Below, in pieces: positions 343 to 63,408 of a DNA stretch of 64,000 nt. The stretch's first letter is position 1. Each line of letters opens with the position of its first letter. The notes under the pieces were generated by a model. It searched no databases. It worked only from the letters and a program-made list of their open reading frames with translations, and was not told the DNA's origin. Position numbers and translations under genes: made by a program. Source of the stretch: an uncultured Erysipelotrichaceae bacterium (GTDB taxonomy: Bacteria > Bacillota_I > Bacilli_A > RF39 > UBA660); contig CADCJS010000002.1 of NCBI GenBank assembly GCA_902801825.1, positions 33,557-97,556 of the forward strand, written 5' to 3'.

Positions 343-1074
343 ATGAAAGATTTGAGTTTTATAAAAGATAAATATATAATGCATAGAGGAATATTTGATA
401 ATAAAGTTACTATAGAAAATACTTTAAATGCATTTAAAAAAGCTATTAAAAAAGATTTACCTATAGAATTAGATGTGCATTTAACTAAAGATAATGAAAT
501 AATTGTTTTTCATGATGATAATATTGAAAGAATGACTGGTAAAAATAAAAATATTGTAGATATGACTTTAGATGAAATAAAAAAATTAAAATTGTTAAAT
601 ACAAGTGAAACAATTCCAACTTTAAAAGAAGTATTAGATTTAGTAGATGGTAAAGTACCTATTATTATAGAACTTAAATACGATACAAAAAAACATAAAC
701 TAGAAAAAGAAATAGTAAAATATTTAGATAATTATAAAGGAAAGTTTGCGGTTAAAAGTTTTGATCCTTTAATAGTTAATTGGTTTAAAAATAATAGAGA
801 AAACTATATTAGAGGATTATTAGTTACTAATAAAACAGATACATTATTTAAATTAATGAATAATAAATTAATACTTTTAAATCTTTGTAAACCGGACTTT
901 TTATCTGTTAGTAAAAAAATGCTAAATAACAAAAAAATAATTGCTTATAATAAGAATCATCCAGTAATCGCTTATACTATCAAGAATGAAAAAGATTTTG
1001 ATAAATATAATGATATTTTTGATAATATAATTTGTGAAAATATAAATAATTATGTTGAAAATAAAAAAATATAG
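343..1074 (+). CDS. glycerophosphodiester phosphodiesterase (GDPD family)
   Basis: The N-terminal segment 'MHRGIFDNKVTIENTLNAFKKAIKK...IELDVHLTKDNEIIVFHDDNIERMTG' matches the GlpQ/UgpQ catalytic signature (H-R ... E-x-D-V-H ... H-D). Confidence 0.75.
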   Translation: MKDLSFIKDKYIMHRGIFDNKVTIENTLNAFKKAIKKDLPIELDVHLTKDNEIIVFHDDNIERMTGKNKNIVDMTLDEIKKLKLLNTSETIPTLKEVLDLVDGKVPIIIELKYDTKKHKLEKEIVKYLDNYKGKFAVKSFDPLIVNWFKNNRENYIRGLLVTNKTDTLFKLMNNKLILLNLCKPDFLSVSKKMLNNKKIIAYNKNHPVIAYTIKNEKDFDKYNDIFDNIICENINNYVENKKI

Positions 1075-1101: not shown

Positions 1102-2145
1102 ATGAAAAAGAAATTATTTATTTTTATATTTTTAATGTTACTTTTAATTCCTAAATCTTCTGCCTATTCAAAAGATTTAATAAAAGTTGATGAAAATGTA
1201 ACAGTTAAAAATGAAACTATTGAAGGTACTAGTTTTAATTTTGGTAATAGTGTTGATATAGAAAGTAATATCAATGGTATTTTATTTCAATTTGCAAATA
1301 ATGCGGTAAATAAATCAAATCAAGATTATTTATTCTTATTTTCTAATAATGTAACAATAGATAAGGCTACTTTTAAAGATGGATTTATATTTGGTAATAC
1401 AATTAATATAGATTCATCAAATATTCAAAGAGATGCTTATGTATTTGGTAATAATGTTAATATTAATAATAATATAGGTAGAGATTTAAAAGTATTCGCC
1501 GCAGATTCAACTATTAATGGTGTAATTAATGGAAATTTATTTATAGAAGCAGAAAATATTACAATTAGTGATGGAACAGTTGTTAAAGGAACTTTAACTT
1601 ATCCTAAGAATGCTAAAATATTTATTTCAAAAGATGCACAAATTAATAAAACAAAATTAACAGATGGAATTACAATTGATGATAAACAAGAATCTTATTT
1701 TTCTAAATTACAATCTAAATTTATATCATTTTTAAATTTATTAGTAGTAGGAATAGTATTTATGCTTGTATTTAGAAAGAAATTTGAAAATATTATCTTA
1801 AGTAAAGAAAGTATTTTCCAAAATTTAGGAATTGGTTTATTATCATTATTATTTATTCCAATCGCAAGTATATTACTATTCACAACAATAGTAGGATTTA
1901 GTTTAGGTGTTATATTAATAGGTATTTATATTTTATTAATTTATACTTCAACTTTAATTACTTCTTATTCAATATCTAATTATGTATTAAATAATAAGAT
2001 TAAGAATAAATATCTAATATTAATTATTGGATTATCAGTTATATATTTATTAAAACTAGTACCAGTTTTAGGAACTATAGTATCTTTAATATGTTTATTA
2101 TATGGATTAGGTTTTGTAACAAATTCATTTATAAAAAGAAAATAA
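1102..2145 (+). CDS. membrane protein with N-terminal signal peptide, beta-helical 'FGNxVxI' repeat domain (bactofilin/polymer-forming-like) and C-terminal multi-TM domain
   Basis: Strong RBS (AGGAGG). Hydrophobic N-terminus. An ~20-aa periodic repeat (FGNSVDI / FGNTINI / FGNNVNI / GVINGNLFI). Four or five C-terminal TM helices. Confidence 0.5.
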   Translation: MKKKLFIFIFLMLLLIPKSSAYSKDLIKVDENVTVKNETIEGTSFNFGNSVDIESNINGILFQFANNAVNKSNQDYLFLFSNNVTIDKATFKDGFIFGNTINIDSSNIQRDAYVFGNNVNINNNIGRDLKVFAADSTINGVINGNLFIEAENITISDGTVVKGTLTYPKNAKIFISKDAQINKTKLTDGITIDDKQESYFSKLQSKFISFLNLLVVGIVFMLVFRKKFENIILSKESIFQNLGIGLLSLLFIPIASILLFTTIVGFSLGVILIGIYILLIYTSTLITSYSISNYVLNNKIKNKYLILIIGLSVIYLLKLVPVLGTIVSLICLLYGLGFVTNSFIKRK

Positions 2146-7958: not shown

Positions 7959-8043
7959 TCATTTTTTCTTGAAAAAAATAATATTTTATTATATAATTTA
8001 TTTGTCTTATGAAAAGACACTGTGCCTCAGTAGCTCAGTTGGA

Positions 8044-8120
8044 TAGAGCAACGCCCTTCTAAGGCGGCGGTCAGGGGTTCGAATCCCTTCTGGGGCACCA
8101 TAATAAAAATATTCGAATTG
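8044..8120 (+). tRNA. tRNA-Arg (anticodon TCT)
   Basis: Acceptor stem GCCTCAG/CTGGGGC with a 3' CCA. D-arm TAGCTCAGTTGGATAGAGCA. Anticodon loop CTTCTAA. T-arm GGTTCGAATCC. Confidence 0.85.
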
Positions 8121-38288: not shown

Positions 38289-38432
38289 TTGACAAATAAT
38301 AGATTTATTGTTAAAATTAATGTGTTTGCGATTATGGCCTTTTTGCCGTTTGCAACCGCACGAATATGGGTTTATAAAAAACATTAATGTTACCTATAAT
38401 AGGCGAGTCTAAAATTTAAAAGGAGGTATAAT
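38289..38432 (+). promoter_or_regulatory. sigma-A promoter (TTGACA-17-TAAAAT) plus ribosomal protein L21 leader
   Basis: TTGACA at 38289-38294 and TAAAAT at 38312-38317. About 110-nt leader with hairpins (gcgattatggcc...ggttgcaaacggc) before rplU, as in the Firmicute L21-leader autoregulatory element. Confidence 0.5.
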
Positions 38433-57914: not shown

Positions 57915-59282
57915 ATGGATTTAGTAAATGTTTATAAAAATAATAAAATTAATGATAATATTGTTTTAGAAGGGTGGATAAGAAACCATAGACCTCAAAA
58001 AGAATATGGATTTATAGATTTCTTTGATGGTACTTGTTTTGAATCAATTCAAGTTGTTTATGATAATACTTTAGATAATTTTGAAGATTTAACTCATTTA
58101 TTAGTAGGAAGTGCAATTAAAGTAGAAGGTACTTTAGTAGAAAGCCAAGGAAAACAAGATATGGAAGTTAAAGCTACTAAAGTTGAAATAATATCTAAAT
58201 CTAGTGAAGATTATCCTATACAACCAAAAAGACATACAATGGAATTCTTAAGAAGTGAAGCTTACTTAAGAAGTAGAACTAAAACATTTCAAGCAGTATT
58301 TAAAATAAGAAGTTTAGCAGCATATGCAATACATAAATATTTTAATGAAAATAATTATTTATATGTTCATACTCCTTTAATAACTACATCTGATTGTGAA
58401 GGAGAGAATCAAATGTTTAAGCTTACTACATTTGATTTAAACAATGTTCCTAAAAATGATAAAGAAGTAGATTATTCAAAAGATTTATTCCATAAACAGA
58501 CATTTGTCACAGGAACAGGACAATTGCATGGTGAAGCTTTCGCAAATAGTTTTAAAAAGATATATACTTTTGGTCCAACATTTAGAACAGAAAAATCTAA
58601 TACTAAAACACATGCTAATGAATTCTGGATGATTGAACCAGAAATATCATTTTGTAATCTAGAAGAATTAATGAACATAGAAGAAGAAATGCTTAAATAT
58701 ATTGTTAAATATGTATTAGATAATGCCAAAGAAGAAATTGAATTCTTTAATAGTTTTATATCAAAAGGATTAAAAGATAAATTAGAAAACTTAGTAAATA
58801 ACGATTTTAAAAGAATTACTCATAAAGAAGCAATTGATATATTAAAAGAAGCTAAAGTTAATTTTGAATTTAAACCTGATTATAATGAAGATTTAGCTAA
58901 AGAACATGAAAAATATATAACTGAATACTTTAATTGCCCAGTATTTGTATATAACTGGCCTAAAGATATAAAAGCTTGGTATATGAAGGTAAATGATGAT
59001 AATGAAACTGTCGCTGCAGTTGATTTAGAAGTATTAGGTGCAGGAGAAATAATGGGTGGTAGTCAAAGAGAAGAAAACTATGATGTATTACTTCAAAGAG
59101 CTAAAGAAAAAAATGTCGATATAGAATCAATTGATTGGTATTTAAATTTAAGAAAATATGGTTGTCCTTATCATTCTGGATTTGGTATGGGATTTGAAAG
59201 ATTAATAATATATCTAACTGGAATGGAAAATATACGAGATGTAATTCCGTTTCCTAGAACACCTGGAAACTGTGAATATTAA
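57915..59282 (+). CDS. asnS: asparaginyl-tRNA synthetase
   Basis: Near-collinear with E. coli AsnS: 'GPTFRTEKSNTKTHANEFWMIEPE', 'VLGAGEIMGGSQREE' and 'GFGMGFERLIIYLTGMENIRDVIPFPRTPGN'. Confidence 0.85.
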   Translation: MDLVNVYKNNKINDNIVLEGWIRNHRPQKEYGFIDFFDGTCFESIQVVYDNTLDNFEDLTHLLVGSAIKVEGTLVESQGKQDMEVKATKVEIISKSSEDYPIQPKRHTMEFLRSEAYLRSRTKTFQAVFKIRSLAAYAIHKYFNENNYLYVHTPLITTSDCEGENQMFKLTTFDLNNVPKNDKEVDYSKDLFHKQTFVTGTGQLHGEAFANSFKKIYTFGPTFRTEKSNTKTHANEFWMIEPEISFCNLEELMNIEEEMLKYIVKYVLDNAKEEIEFFNSFISKGLKDKLENLVNNDFKRITHKEAIDILKEAKVNFEFKPDYNEDLAKEHEKYITEYFNCPVFVYNWPKDIKAWYMKVNDDNETVAAVDLEVLGAGEIMGGSQREENYDVLLQRAKEKNVDIESIDWYLNLRKYGCPYHSGFGMGFERLIIYLTGMENIRDVIPFPRTPGNCEY

Positions 59283-59349
59283 AAAAATAAAGTAAAAACT
59301 ACTTTATTTTTTTATTATATTTATTTAAATGATATAATATAAAAAAAAG

Positions 59350-60885
59350 GTGATGAATATGAAGAATATAATTCAAATTGCTAAAAAAATAGGATTAACT
59401 AAAAAAGATTTATTTTTATATGGTAATTATATGTCAAAAATTAATTATGATTATGAAAATAGTACTAATAAAGATGGAAAATTAATATTAGTAACAAGTA
59501 TTAATCCAACACCATATGGAGAGGGTAAAACAACTTTAAGTATTGGATTAAATGATTCATTAAATCTTTTAGAAAAGAAATCAGTTGCGGCATTAAGAGA
59601 ACCATCTTTAGGTCCAGTATTTGGAAGAAAAGGTGGTGCTATTGGTGGTGGTAAATCAATAGTTATACCTTCAAATGAAATAAATTTACATTTTACAGGT
59701 GATTTTCATGCAATAACTAGTGCAAATAATTTATTATGTGCAATTGTAGATAATCATATTTATCAAGGTAATAAATTAAATATAGATAAAGTTATTATTA
59801 AAAGATGTTTAGATGTAAATGATAGATCATTAAGAGGTAATTTTGTAATTACTCCAGCTTCTGAAATAATGGCAATATTTTGTTTATCAAAAAATATAGA
59901 AGATTTAAAAAGAAGAATAGGTAATATAATAGTTGGTTATACAAAAGAAAATAAAGAAGTATATGCTAAAGATTTAAATGCAGTGGATGCTGTTACTTTA
60001 TTATTAAAAGATGCTATTAAACCAAATTTAGTTCAAAGTAAATATGGTAATCCTATATTAATACATGGTGGCCCATTTGCTAATATAGCGCATGGTTGTT
60101 CTTCAATTATTGCAACTAAAACTGCATTAAAACTATCTGATTATGTAATAACTGAAGCAGGTTTTGGTAGTGATTTAGGTGCAATTAAGTTTTTTGATAT
60201 AAAATGTAAAAATAATAATATTTATCCAGAAGCTATAATTTTAAATGTTACAATACAAGCATTAAAACATAATGGTGAAAATAATTTAAGTAAAGGAATA
60301 TCTAATTTAGAATTTCATATTAATAATATGAAAAAATATACTAGTAATCTTATAGTAGCTTTAAATAAATTTAAAGAAGATAAGGAAGAAGAAATACAAT
60401 TTATAAAAGATTTTTGTACAAAACTAAATATAGATTTTAGTATATGTACTAATTATCTAGATGGTGAAATAGGATGCATAGAATTAGCAAATAAAATAAT
60501 TAATTTAAAGAAAAACACTAAAAAATATAAAGTATATAATATAAATGATTCTTTAGAAGAAAAAATTAATAAAATGTGTAGAAATGAATTAGGTGCAAAT
60601 ATAATAGAGTATACAGATTTAGCAAAAGAAAAATTAAAACTATATAAAAATAAAAAATTAGATATTTGTATATCTAAAACACCAATGTCAATAACACAAA
60701 ATCCTAAGATATTAGGTTATCCAAAAGATTTTAAATTAAAAATAACAGATATTAATTTATATAATGGTGCGGGTTTTATAACTATAATGTTAGGAAATGT
60801 AATCACTATGCCTGGTCTTACTAAAGATTCAAATTATATTAATATGAAAATTGATAATTATGGTAATATTTCTGGGATTAATTAA
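59350..60885 (+). CDS. fhs: formate--tetrahydrofolate ligase
   Basis: 'PTPYGEGKTT' P-loop, 'GGGKS', 'HGGPFANIAHGC' and 'EAGFG.D'. Confidence 0.85.
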   Translation: MMNMKNIIQIAKKIGLTKKDLFLYGNYMSKINYDYENSTNKDGKLILVTSINPTPYGEGKTTLSIGLNDSLNLLEKKSVAALREPSLGPVFGRKGGAIGGGKSIVIPSNEINLHFTGDFHAITSANNLLCAIVDNHIYQGNKLNIDKVIIKRCLDVNDRSLRGNFVITPASEIMAIFCLSKNIEDLKRRIGNIIVGYTKENKEVYAKDLNAVDAVTLLLKDAIKPNLVQSKYGNPILIHGGPFANIAHGCSSIIATKTALKLSDYVITEAGFGSDLGAIKFFDIKCKNNNIYPEAIILNVTIQALKHNGENNLSKGISNLEFHINNMKKYTSNLIVALNKFKEDKEEEIQFIKDFCTKLNIDFSICTNYLDGEIGCIELANKIINLKKNTKKYKVYNINDSLEEKINKMCRNELGANIIEYTDLAKEKLKLYKNKKLDICISKTPMSITQNPKILGYPKDFKLKITDINLYNGAGFITIMLGNVITMPGLTKDSNYINMKIDNYGNISGIN

Positions 60886-60912
60886 AAAAATACACAAATG
60901 TGTATTTTTTTA
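60886..60912 (+). terminator. rho-independent terminator after fhs
   Basis: aaaaatacac-aaat-gtgtattttt hairpin followed by a T-run. Confidence 0.55.
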
Positions 60913-60960
60913 ATGGAATTAATTTTTTTAATGTCTAATAAAACATATGAAAGGAGGAGT

Positions 60961-61821
60961 ATGGAATATAGTACCGATAAATTCTATAGTTGTAAATATG
61001 ATAGAGCATTTAAAGAAGTATTCTTAAAAGAAAGAAATAAAGATTTATTAAAGGTATTATTAGAAAGTATATTAAAATTAAAAATAAAAGGAATAAAATT
61101 AATACCAAATGAATTAAATGAAGAAAACTTATTGGTAAGAAGAAAAACATTAGATGCTTTAATAGAAACAGATATAGGAAAGATAGGAATAGAAGTTAAT
61201 TCAAATAATAGACCATATGTACATTTAAGAAATATGGCATATATATGTGATTTATATGCATCTTATACTTTATCCGGAGAAAAATATACAGATAAAGTAG
61301 ATATAATACAAATAAATTTAAGTTATGAACTAGGTATAAATCATAAAAAATTATCAATATATAAAATAATGGATGATGAAGAAAATCTATATGTGAATAA
61401 TTTTAAAATCTATGAAATAAATATGGATTATTATCTAAAATTATGGTACGATAAAAACGAAAAAGAGATAAAAGAAAATGAATATCTAGTAATGCTTGGA
61501 CTTGATAAAGAAGAACTAGAAGCTTTTTCAAAAATAATAAAAAATGAAAAGGTGGAAAAATATATGAGTGAAATAAAGAAAGTAAATGGGAAAACAGTAT
61601 TTAAAAGATTTATATCATATGAACAAGATAAAGAATTTATTAAAAATAGTGAATTAAGTGAAGCGAAAGATGAAGGAATTAAAGAAGGAATTAAAGAGGG
61701 TTCATATGATAAACAAATTGAAATTGCGAAAAATCTACTTAATGAAAATATGGATATAAAAACTATTTCAAAAGTAACTGGTCTATCAATAGAAAATATT
61801 AATAAATTAAAAATAAAGTAA
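60961..61821 (+). CDS. Rpn/YhgA-like PD-(D/E)XK nuclease family protein (putative transposase-like)
   Basis: 'DRAFKEVFLKERNKDLLKVLLESIL' matches the N-terminal signature of the Rpn family (TIGR01784-type). Start moved to the ATG at 60961 (AAAGGAGGAG RBS). Confidence 0.6.
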   Translation: MEYSTDKFYSCKYDRAFKEVFLKERNKDLLKVLLESILKLKIKGIKLIPNELNEENLLVRRKTLDALIETDIGKIGIEVNSNNRPYVHLRNMAYICDLYASYTLSGEKYTDKVDIIQINLSYELGINHKKLSIYKIMDDEENLYVNNFKIYEINMDYYLKLWYDKNEKEIKENEYLVMLGLDKEELEAFSKIIKNEKVEKYMSEIKKVNGKTVFKRFISYEQDKEFIKNSELSEAKDEGIKEGIKEGSYDKQIEIAKNLLNENMDIKTISKVTGLSIENINKLKIK

Positions 61822-61863
61822 AAACCACTTTATTTTTTTATTTTATATGTTATAATTAAAGTA

Positions 61864-62026
61864 CCTATAAGAATTAGTGTACATATAACCCACTAAAACT
61901 TCGATAAGGGAATCGGGAATAATAAATGGTGTTGAATACTTACTTGTTAAGGATCCTAAAGTTTATTACAAGATACCCACCTGCACATACGTGTAGGTTT
62001 ATCGTAACAATTCTTATAGGTTTTTT
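61864..62026 (+). ncRNA. candidate structured small RNA / cis-regulatory leader with 12-bp closing helix and U-tract
   Basis: TATAAT at 61851-61856, about 7 nt upstream. 5' cctataagaatt (61864-61875) is perfectly complementary to aattcttatagg (62009-62020), which is followed by TTTTTT. Internal hairpins cctgcac-atac-gtgtagg and cttgtta...tacaag. Confidence 0.35.
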
Positions 62027-62036
62027 GAGGTAAAAT

Positions 62037-62726
62037 ATGTTTGATAGATTAGAAAAACTTATAGGAAAAGAAAATATTGAATTATTACATTCTAAAACTG
62101 TGTTAGTAATAGGTTTAGGTGGAGTAGGTGGTATGGCTGTTGAAACACTTATTAGAAATGGTATAGAAAACATTATATTAGTTGATAATGATATAGTTGA
62201 TATAACTAATAAAAATAGACAAATAATCGCTACTGATTTAACTATAAATAAATTAAAAACAGATGCTTTTGAAGAAAGAATTAAAAAAATAAATAAAAAT
62301 GTAAATATAATAAAAATTAATTATTTTATTACTAAAAATAATGTTGATAGTTTATTTGAATATAAATTTGATTATTTAATAGATGCATGTGATACTATTT
62401 CAACTAAAATATTATTAATTGAAAAATGTTTAGAAAAAAATATTAAATTTATTTCTTCAATGGGTACTGGTAATAAATTTGATATTACAAAATTAAAAAT
62501 AATTGATATAAAGAAAACTAGTTATGATCCAATCGCAAAAGTTATTAGAAAAAAACTAAAAGATGATAAGATTAAAGGAAAAGTTATGGTTGTTTCTAGT
62601 GATGAAATGCCTATAAAAACAAATAATAGAACACCTTATTCTTATAGTGTAGTACCTAATACTGCAGGTATTATGATTGCTGATTATATAATTAAAGATA
62701 TAATAAATATTGAATTTTTTAATTAA
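62037..62726 (+). CDS. tcdA: tRNA threonylcarbamoyladenosine dehydratase (ThiF/MoeB-family, TcdA/CsdL-like)
   Basis: 'VLVIGLGGVGGMAVETLIRNGI' Rossmann fold and 'LIDACDT'. 229 aa. Confidence 0.7.
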   Translation: MFDRLEKLIGKENIELLHSKTVLVIGLGGVGGMAVETLIRNGIENIILVDNDIVDITNKNRQIIATDLTINKLKTDAFEERIKKINKNVNIIKINYFITKNNVDSLFEYKFDYLIDACDTISTKILLIEKCLEKNIKFISSMGTGNKFDITKLKIIDIKKTSYDPIAKVIRKKLKDDKIKGKVMVVSSDEMPIKTNNRTPYSYSVVPNTAGIMIADYIIKDIINIEFFN

Positions 62727-62772: not shown

Positions 62773-63408
62773 ATGGCTAAAATAGATGAATTATTTATAA
62801 AAGAGGTAGTTAATCAAGAAAAAAAATCTATTTATTCAGATGCAATTTTAGATAATATAAATAATAATGAATTTAAAAGAGTATTAATAAGATTAGAAAA
62901 ACTATCTGAAATGTATTATACAAAGAAAAAGTTTGATGATGAATTAATCGTAGAATTAGGTATAATAAATTGTTCTAATGCGTTTAAACAAATTACTAAA
63001 AAATATGTTGAATATAAAAAAGATAATGTATATGATTTAAATAGTGTTAAAATAGATAAAATAATTAATAATAATTATCAAAAATTAAGAAAAACTACTT
63101 TTAAAAATAATAGTGAAAATATGATATATAATATTGCTGTAATTAAAACTTTTTCTAATATATATTTTCAAATAAAAGATTTAAACAAAGGAAAAGATTA
63201 TAAAGATAAGAATTTTATTGAAACAAAAAGAAAAATATCAAAAAAACAATCATTTAATAGTAATTTAGTTAAAGCTAAAGAACTAGGTAGTAATGTAGAT
63301 TTATCTATTAATGATATAGAAAATATTGTTAATAATAATTTGGATAATGGTATAGGAAATATAAATAGTTTATTTGTTAAAGATAAAAAATATGTATATA
63401 AAAAGTAA
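62773..63408 (+). CDS. hypothetical protein (211 aa)
   Basis: GGAGG RBS. No motif recognised. Confidence 0.35.
   Translation: MAKIDELFIKEVVNQEKKSIYSDAILDNINNNEFKRVLIRLEKLSEMYYTKKKFDDELIVELGIINCSNAFKQITKKYVEYKKDNVYDLNSVKIDKIINNNYQKLRKTTFKNNSENMIYNIAVIKTFSNIYFQIKDLNKGKDYKDKNFIETKRKISKKQSFNSNLVKAKELGSNVDLSINDIENIVNNNLDNGIGNINSLFVKDKKYVYKK

Follow-up and report, generated by a model that had tools for sequence, protein, structure and literature searches.

We analysed a 64,000-nt stretch of DNA (hereafter the window) in which a structured RNA is encoded between a gene of the Rpn family and a tcdA/yrvM-like gene of the ThiF family. The gene order is asnS-fhs-rpn-6S-tcdA-orf211-rarA(-), and the same order was found in metagenome contigs of the same species, which are 99-100% identical. 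The neighbours named in the earlier note, an Rpn-family nuclease gene and a ThiF-family gene, were both recovered, the former as an Rpn-family PD-(D/E)XK gene and the latter with TcdA as the best NCBIfam match of its protein, at 138.8 bits and thus below the cut-off of 304. The features of the locus are as follows.

57915-59282: asnS, an upstream neighbour.
59350-60885: fhs, an upstream neighbour.
60898-61821: Rpn-family PD-(D/E)XK gene, directly upstream of the 6S RNA gene.
61848-61856, + strand: extended -10 element TGtTATAAT, the promoter of the 6S RNA gene, from the sequence and at the same offset in homologues.
61859-62026, + strand: 6S RNA gene (ssrS/bsrA type), with bounds set by covariance models.
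61863-61875, + strand: 5' arm of the closing stem, forming 13 perfect pairs with 62009-62021.
61887-61893, + strand: 5' strand of the bubble-flanking helix (AACC-C-AC), which pairs with 61993-61999 in the consensus structure.
61894-61907, + strand: 5' strand of the central bubble, with the conserved motif AAAACCGACUAA.
61908-61978, + strand: terminal (apical) stem with internal loops; apical loop at 61943-61947.
61980-61997, + strand: hairpin CCUGCAC-AUAC-GUGUAGG in the 3' strand of the central bubble, which folds in homologues.
62009-62021, + strand: 3' arm of the closing stem, pairing with 61863-61875.
62021-62026, + strand: T6 run abutting the closing stem; a run of at least four T stands here in 39 of 40 homologues.
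62027-62726, + strand: Shine-Dalgarno sequence GAGGT (62027-62031) and the ThiF-family tcdA/yrvM-like gene with its ATG at 62037 (Pfam ThiF).
62773-63408: orf211, encoding 211 aa between tcdA and rarA, with no Pfam or NCBIfam match.
To the end of the window, - strand: rarA, intact and running off the window end. The list of open reading frames had suggested a truncated rarA, a candidate that we rejected on this ground.

The TATAAT hexamer at 61851-61856 is immediately preceded by TG at 61848-61849, which makes it an extended -10 box. The -35 region is poor, owing to which a simple promoter scan missed this promoter; closer relatives carry TTGTCA at that place. A TGn followed by a -10-like hexamer was present at a fixed offset in 39 of the 40 homologues, 33 of them with an exact TATAAT. 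Based on the promoter spacing, transcription is predicted to start at about A61863, and the transcript likely covers approximately 61863-62026 (~164 nt), close to the size of ~163 nt estimated in the earlier note. The sequence cctataagaatt (61864-61875) is the exact complement of aattcttatagg (62009-62020), and A61863-T62021 supplies a 13th pair. The GC content of 61863-62026 is 32.3%, compared with 21.7% in the window and 20-21% in the flanking genes. The sequence thus contains the TATAAT box, the 12-bp helix (13 bp with the additional pair), the TTTTTT run, the hairpin at 61980-61997, and the raised GC content that the earlier note had described.

The same note had stated that the element could not be matched to 6S RNA and had proposed an Rfam scan. 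That scan overturned the statement, giving a match to RF00013 (6S/SsrS) at 61859-62026 on the + strand with 56.6 bits against a gathering score of 46.4. The match spans model positions 1-187 of 187 and is therefore full length. The E-value is 2e-10 when the local region is searched and 1.4e-8 over all 64 kb of the window, with a score only ~10 bits above the gathering score, and the next-best matches in the scan were noise (E > 1). The blocks GGGAA, GGUGU, and CCCACCUG (also written CACCCACCUG) are common to the window RNA and the RF00013 consensus. A covariance model of the lineage, R1, scored the window RNA at 146.6 bits. We assign the structured RNA, with a confidence close to certainty, as the 6S RNA gene of an uncultured low-GC gut bacterium of the Bacilli lineage and as the positional equivalent of Bacillus subtilis bsrA (6S-1); its function as a 6S RNA would follow by homology. 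The only two other Rfam matches in the window at gathering level were a ribosomal protein L21 leader (53.6 bits, 38344-38420) and a tRNA (65.6 bits, 8024-8097).

Eighty loci encoding homologues of the downstream ThiF-family protein were fetched. The nearest of them, with 64-70% identity, belong to uncultured Bacilli, 'Tenericutes', and 'Clostridium sp. CAG:433'-type gut MAGs. Judged by sequence, the host is not Clostridium proper, its closest loci being those of uncultured Bacilli/'Tenericutes' MAGs; we take its group to be of the RF39/'Tenericutes' type, that is, uncultured gut Bacilli with reduced genomes. Among the 20 closest loci, 10 had an Rfam match to 6S RNA that reached the gathering score. 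No 6S RNA was found nearby at the gathering score in 20 Clostridia-type tcdA loci, and the synteny is therefore limited to the Bacilli-type lineage. In a separate observation, a Bacillota MAG (L062) carries two divergent SAM riboswitches of ~92 bits each upstream of its tcdA homologue, at 774-877 (-) and 1242-1351 (+), which are unrelated to 6S RNA.

An alignment of 11 sequences by MAFFT, analysed with RNAalifold, recovered the terminal stem with 21 pairs, 14 of which showed compensatory changes. The closing stem was missed in this 11-sequence alignment, because indels had misaligned it. A 6S-type structure of 44 pairs was therefore written by hand on the alignment and converted into the covariance model R1, with which the sequences were realigned. 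R1 gave 41 matches in 81 sources (the 80 loci and the window), 40 of them full length and 30 outside the seed, and every match precedes the tcdA homologue in the same orientation. The 40 related loci with the RNA come from gut MAGs of uncultured low-GC Bacilli and 'Tenericutes'. In 40 distinct sequences, 86.8% of the cells were paired, as against 40-47% when the 3' partners were slid by 1-3 columns, in an alignment fitted to the structure by the covariance model, so that the pair counts are biased upward. Double (compensatory) changes occurred at 35 of the 44 pairs. The covariation score was 0.517, compared with ~0.09 for slid partners and 0.204 for shuffles, and 0 of 500 shuffles reached 0.517. 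A covariation analysis of the regions upstream of tcdA had been suggested in the earlier note, with Clostridia in mind; it bears out the closing stem, with compensatory changes at 12 of 12 consensus pairs (for example, column pair 8-214 with AU 15, UG 13, UA 10, and CG 1), in Bacilli-type rather than Clostridia-type loci.

The resulting fold is a rod in which a large central bubble separates the closing stem from the terminal stem; covariation supports it, in the alignment fitted by the covariance model. At 168 nt, the window RNA is the shortest of the family (median 181), and its closing arm is shortened on the two strands in concert, as a structural constraint predicts. The window RNA does not form the inner helix of the closing arm (P2). 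In the terminal stem, helices 5-8 were 91-100% paired with compensatory changes at 17 of 21 pairs, and the pairings 61939-61942/61948-61951, 61934-61935/61954-61955, and 61920-61927/61961-61968 are backed by covariation. The earlier note had described two local hairpins. One of these, cctgcac-atac-gtgtagg, is the hairpin at 61980-61997; the other, cttgtta...tacaag, does not correspond to the conserved pairing according to covariation. The helix flanking the bubble is short (4+2 bp), its columns are almost invariant or poorly aligned, and helices 3-4 were 48-80% paired in the 40 sequences; since the helix is near-invariant, covariation is uninformative there.

The 3'-bubble hairpin, CCUG...(C)AGG, was found in 41 of 41 homologues in 26 distinct sequences. 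It shares nucleotides with the 3' strand of the bubble-flanking helix, and the hairpin at 61980-61997 and the helix 61887-61893/61993-61999 are therefore mutually exclusive. A hairpin opposite the 5' central bulge is a feature of 6S RNAs and was shown to form in B. subtilis 6S-1 (PMC8414754); the 3'-bubble hairpin has been tied to the pRNA-induced rearrangement that frees RNA polymerase (PMC3923129; PMC10578484). In characterised 6S RNAs, GG occupies positions 4/5 or 5/6 of the pRNA, and the template has an adenine next to the start (PMC8414754). The motif AAAACCGACUAA, which is present in 37 of 40 loci, yields the deduced family consensus pRNA AGUCGGUUUU. The deduced pRNAs have GG at positions 5/6 and a template A beside the start, in agreement with this rule. 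For the window, the predicted pRNA is 5'-AGUGGGUUAUAUG (the deduced window form is also written AGUGGGUUAU), with U61894 as the putative start; a start at C61893, giving GUGGGUU, is a conceivable alternative. By homology, 61887-61893 would form the first part of the pRNA template.

[quoted passage not shown] The rod with its open bubble would mimic an open promoter and fill the active site of the housekeeping sigma-A RNA polymerase holoenzyme, and this occupancy would dampen transcription when nutrients are scarce. Upon nutrient upshift, the polymerase would copy the 5' bubble strand from U61894 into the pRNA 5'-AGUGGGUUAUAUG, which would unzip the helix 61887-61893/61993-61999. The 3' strand freed in this way would snap into the hairpin at 61980-61997, and the rearranged RNA would let the polymerase go.

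The position of the gene was compared with that in relatives and in B. subtilis. The relative L005 shows the order aspS-orf149-6S-tcdA-orf158-rarA(-), in which an unrelated-looking 158-aa ORF occupies the position of orf211. In B. subtilis, bsrA lies between aspS and yrvM, and rarA is found near 6S RNA across the Firmicutes. In the window, the 6S RNA gene stands upstream of yrvM/tcdA with an aminoacyl-tRNA synthetase (aaRS) gene upstream and rarA nearby, where the TcdA assignment is to be read with the sub-cut-off NCBIfam match. The shared order aaRS...6S-tcdA-x-rarA therefore marks the RNA as a positional orthologue of 6S-1. We also observed a direct repeat of ~40 nt, AAAAATAAAGTAAAAAC[T/C]ACTTTATTTTTTTATT, at 59284-59322 (after the asnS stop and before fhs) and at 61806-61846 (after the rpn stop and before 6S), each copy containing an AT-only hairpin and a T-run and being followed by its own TGnTATAAT box. 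The two copies suggest that a module of fhs and rpn was inserted or duplicated at the aaRS-6S junction, displacing the TTGTCA -35 element of the relatives. An apparent 'indel' in the rpn gene of another locus, L083, is a run of N in the scaffold.

The junction between the 6S RNA gene and tcdA is tight. The distance from the T-tract to the tcdA start codon is 10 nt in the window and 10-19 nt in the group formed by the window and the five relatives L005, L012, L006, L015, and L017, in all of which the Shine-Dalgarno sequence of tcdA directly adjoins the T-tract. A promoter scan of the window found no promoter-like site on the + strand between the 6S T-tract and tcdA. With a gap of 10-19 nt there is no room for a promoter, and tcdA transcripts in these loci therefore stem either from the 6S promoter, through read-through, or from an internal promoter that escaped detection; in the window, read-through is the probable route. 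Over all homologues, this gap varies between 10 and 1455 nt; in 34 of 40 it measures 31-1455 nt. Relatives with gaps of 31-114 nt have a second TGnTATAAT for tcdA. Gaps of ~870-920 nt in a sub-clade (L014, 2130-2999; L016, L008, L020, L026, and others) hold a 289-aa ORF that overlaps the tcdA start, for which no NCBIfam match was found. A 77-aa ORF antisense to 6S and tcdA (61940-62173, - strand) was considered as a gene and rejected, because its counterpart in L005 only mirrors conserved features of the sense strand.

The T6 run probably marks the 3' end of the 6S RNA, either through leaky termination or as a processing boundary. The second possibility, in which a nuclease generates the 3' end from a 6S-tcdA co-transcript, as in E. 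coli ssrS-ygfA, and the stem with its T-tract is no terminator, is an alternative that we hold to be somewhat improbable. It is consistent with the 10-nt gap, with the Shine-Dalgarno sequence directly after the T-tract, and with the result of the promoter scan. Furthermore, a simple terminator scan did not recognise a canonical intrinsic terminator in the closing stem with its T-tract, since the stem encloses an insert of 133 nt and the loop is too long. Forms of B. subtilis 6S-1 that carry additional aspS and yrvM sequence were recovered with sigma-A, indicating that read-through transcripts exist (PMC11077062), and the 6S RNAs of this species are matured by RNases (PMC10578484). Set against this, the T-tract is kept in 39 of 40 loci, including those in which tcdA has its own promoter or lies ~900 nt away. 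Its retention regardless of the distance to tcdA argues that the T-tract serves the formation of the 6S 3' end. The expected expression as a discrete, abundant RNA of ~160-200 nt has indirect support from the promoter and the T-tract, each conserved in 39 of 40 loci. A tcdA promoter inside the 6S gene is also conceivable.

A stronger claim on the read-through transcript is that, in the species of the window, together with a few near relatives, the 6S gene is the obligatory 5' leader of the mRNA of tcdA, the gene of the ct6A tRNA modification, with the tcdA level set by read-through of the closing stem and U-tract, and that the read-through RNA, its 6S fold being intact, may bind RNA polymerase. 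We consider this unlikely; a hint in its direction comes from RIP-seq in B. subtilis, according to which a read-through transcript with a 6S fold may bind the polymerase (PMC11077062). If true, an obligatory 6S leader would couple a tRNA-modification enzyme to the growth-phase circuit of 6S RNA.

The earlier note had regarded the element as either a riboswitch-type OFF switch or a free-standing sRNA. The second part stands, as the RNA extends from its own promoter to its own T-tract. The first part, a cis-acting riboswitch or attenuator leader of tcdA in which a signal decides whether the closing helix terminates transcription before tcdA, is largely refuted and in our estimate highly improbable. 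The 10-19-nt spacing in the window and its five companion loci, which leaves no space for a promoter and places the element within the tcdA 5' leader, fits such a leader. The full-length 6S match speaks against it, as does the Rfam search, which found no riboswitch family at E<=10. In the other 34 of 40 homologues, the wider gaps, some with a second promoter or the 289-aa ORF, indicate that the RNA is maintained independently of the tcdA leader. The 20 Clostridia-type tcdA loci are without the element, and no conserved alternative anti-terminator pairing was found. The lone candidate for such a pairing is specific to the window: 62011-62025 can pair with 62053-62067 (tcdA codons 6-10) at 13 of 15 positions with -15.5 kcal/mol, enclosing the Shine-Dalgarno sequence and start codon. 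We rejected it as a conserved switch; it is strong in the window (1 of 200 shuffles), yet absent in seven relatives, and is probably due to chance. It arises in part because its core, CTATAG, is palindromic.

The rival view that AT-rich intergenic DNA has here produced an inverted repeat by chance, and that no functional RNA exists, is already refuted by the covariance-model match, by 40 loci with compensatory changes, and by the conserved promoter and T-tract, even though perfect 12-mer inverted repeats with loops of 50-250 nt are no commoner in the window (21) than first-order Markov simulations predict (19.0). The closing helix alone is therefore unusable as evidence, and the significance comes from the whole fold, the covariance-model match, and the covariation. 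The 168-nt segment has a minimum free energy (MFE) of -41.2 kcal/mol (z = -3.35), and 0 of 200 dinucleotide shuffles folded as well. In the bubble region, the MFE fold departs from the canonical rod; the consensus pairs give -28.4 kcal/mol, and -33.2 kcal/mol if enforced. It favours the 3'-bubble hairpin together with a 5' hairpin, 61874-61879 with 61891-61896, which was rejected as a structural element since it is not conserved in the family. The mismatch between the MFE fold and the rod is a caveat, yet it is to be expected if the polymerase keeps the bubble of the RNA open.

The RNA is a genuine, conserved, and ordinary member of an already known class, in the location expected in Firmicutes. 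The main value of its assignment as 6S RNA lies in the correct annotation of a housekeeping RNA, which any pipeline based on Infernal and Rfam would label. Uncultured gut Bacilli of this RF39/'Tenericutes' type, with their reduced genomes, keep a 6S-1-type gene in the ancestral neighbourhood aspS-6S-yrvM-rarA, and the 41-sequence alignment provides a clean lineage-specific 6S model.

Leaders that act by riboswitch or attenuation resemble the window RNA in being promoter-proximal and structured, with a helix and U-tract right before a coding gene. They differ from it in that the window RNA matches no aptamer family, has no conserved alternative pairing, and varies in position relative to the gene among homologues.

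With B. subtilis 6S-1 (bsrA), the window RNA shares the family RF00013, a rod with a central bubble and the 3'-bubble hairpin, the genomic setting (an aaRS gene on the upstream side, yrvM/tcdA downstream, and rarA in the vicinity), and a deduced pRNA with GG at positions 5/6. B. subtilis 6S-1 is ~190 nt long, whereas the window RNA is shorter, at ~164-168 nt. The predicted window pRNA starts with A (template U61894), as do those of B. subtilis 6S-2 and E. coli 6S RNA; 6S-1, in contrast, initiates with G at C40. Furthermore, tcdA abuts the RNA in the window (10-nt gap), and asnS-fhs-rpn stands upstream in place of aspS.

E. coli 6S RNA (ssrS) belongs to the same Rfam family and is likewise an open-promoter mimic, and its downstream ORF, ygfA, is co-transcribed with it, as tcdA probably is in the window. 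It initiates its pRNA with ATP, as predicted for the window RNA, and in both the pRNA start, a predicted one in the window, is a U that directly follows a CCGA-like motif. The downstream gene ygfA encodes a 5-formyl-THF cyclo-ligase, unlike the ThiF-family tcdA homologue of the window; a folate gene, fhs, lies upstream in the window and is not conserved there in relatives. E. coli ssrS has two promoters and is processed by RNase E/G, whereas a single extended -10 promoter was seen in the window.

The 6S RNAs of lactic acid bacteria (PMC8414754) show the same canonical structure. Their 5' bulge likewise faces a hairpin, the promoter contains TATAAT, a terminator or T-tract stands at the 3' end, and rarA is close by. 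There, the gene lies between rarA and uspA and seems to be monocistronic, whereas the window 6S RNA gene is directly upstream of tcdA, with rarA two genes downstream on the opposite strand. The tight 6S-tcdA junction represents a small case in which a 6S RNA would share its transcript with the ORF that follows, and the probable read-through from 6S into tcdA parallels E. coli ssrS-ygfA and the B. subtilis 6S-1-yrvM species from RIP-seq.
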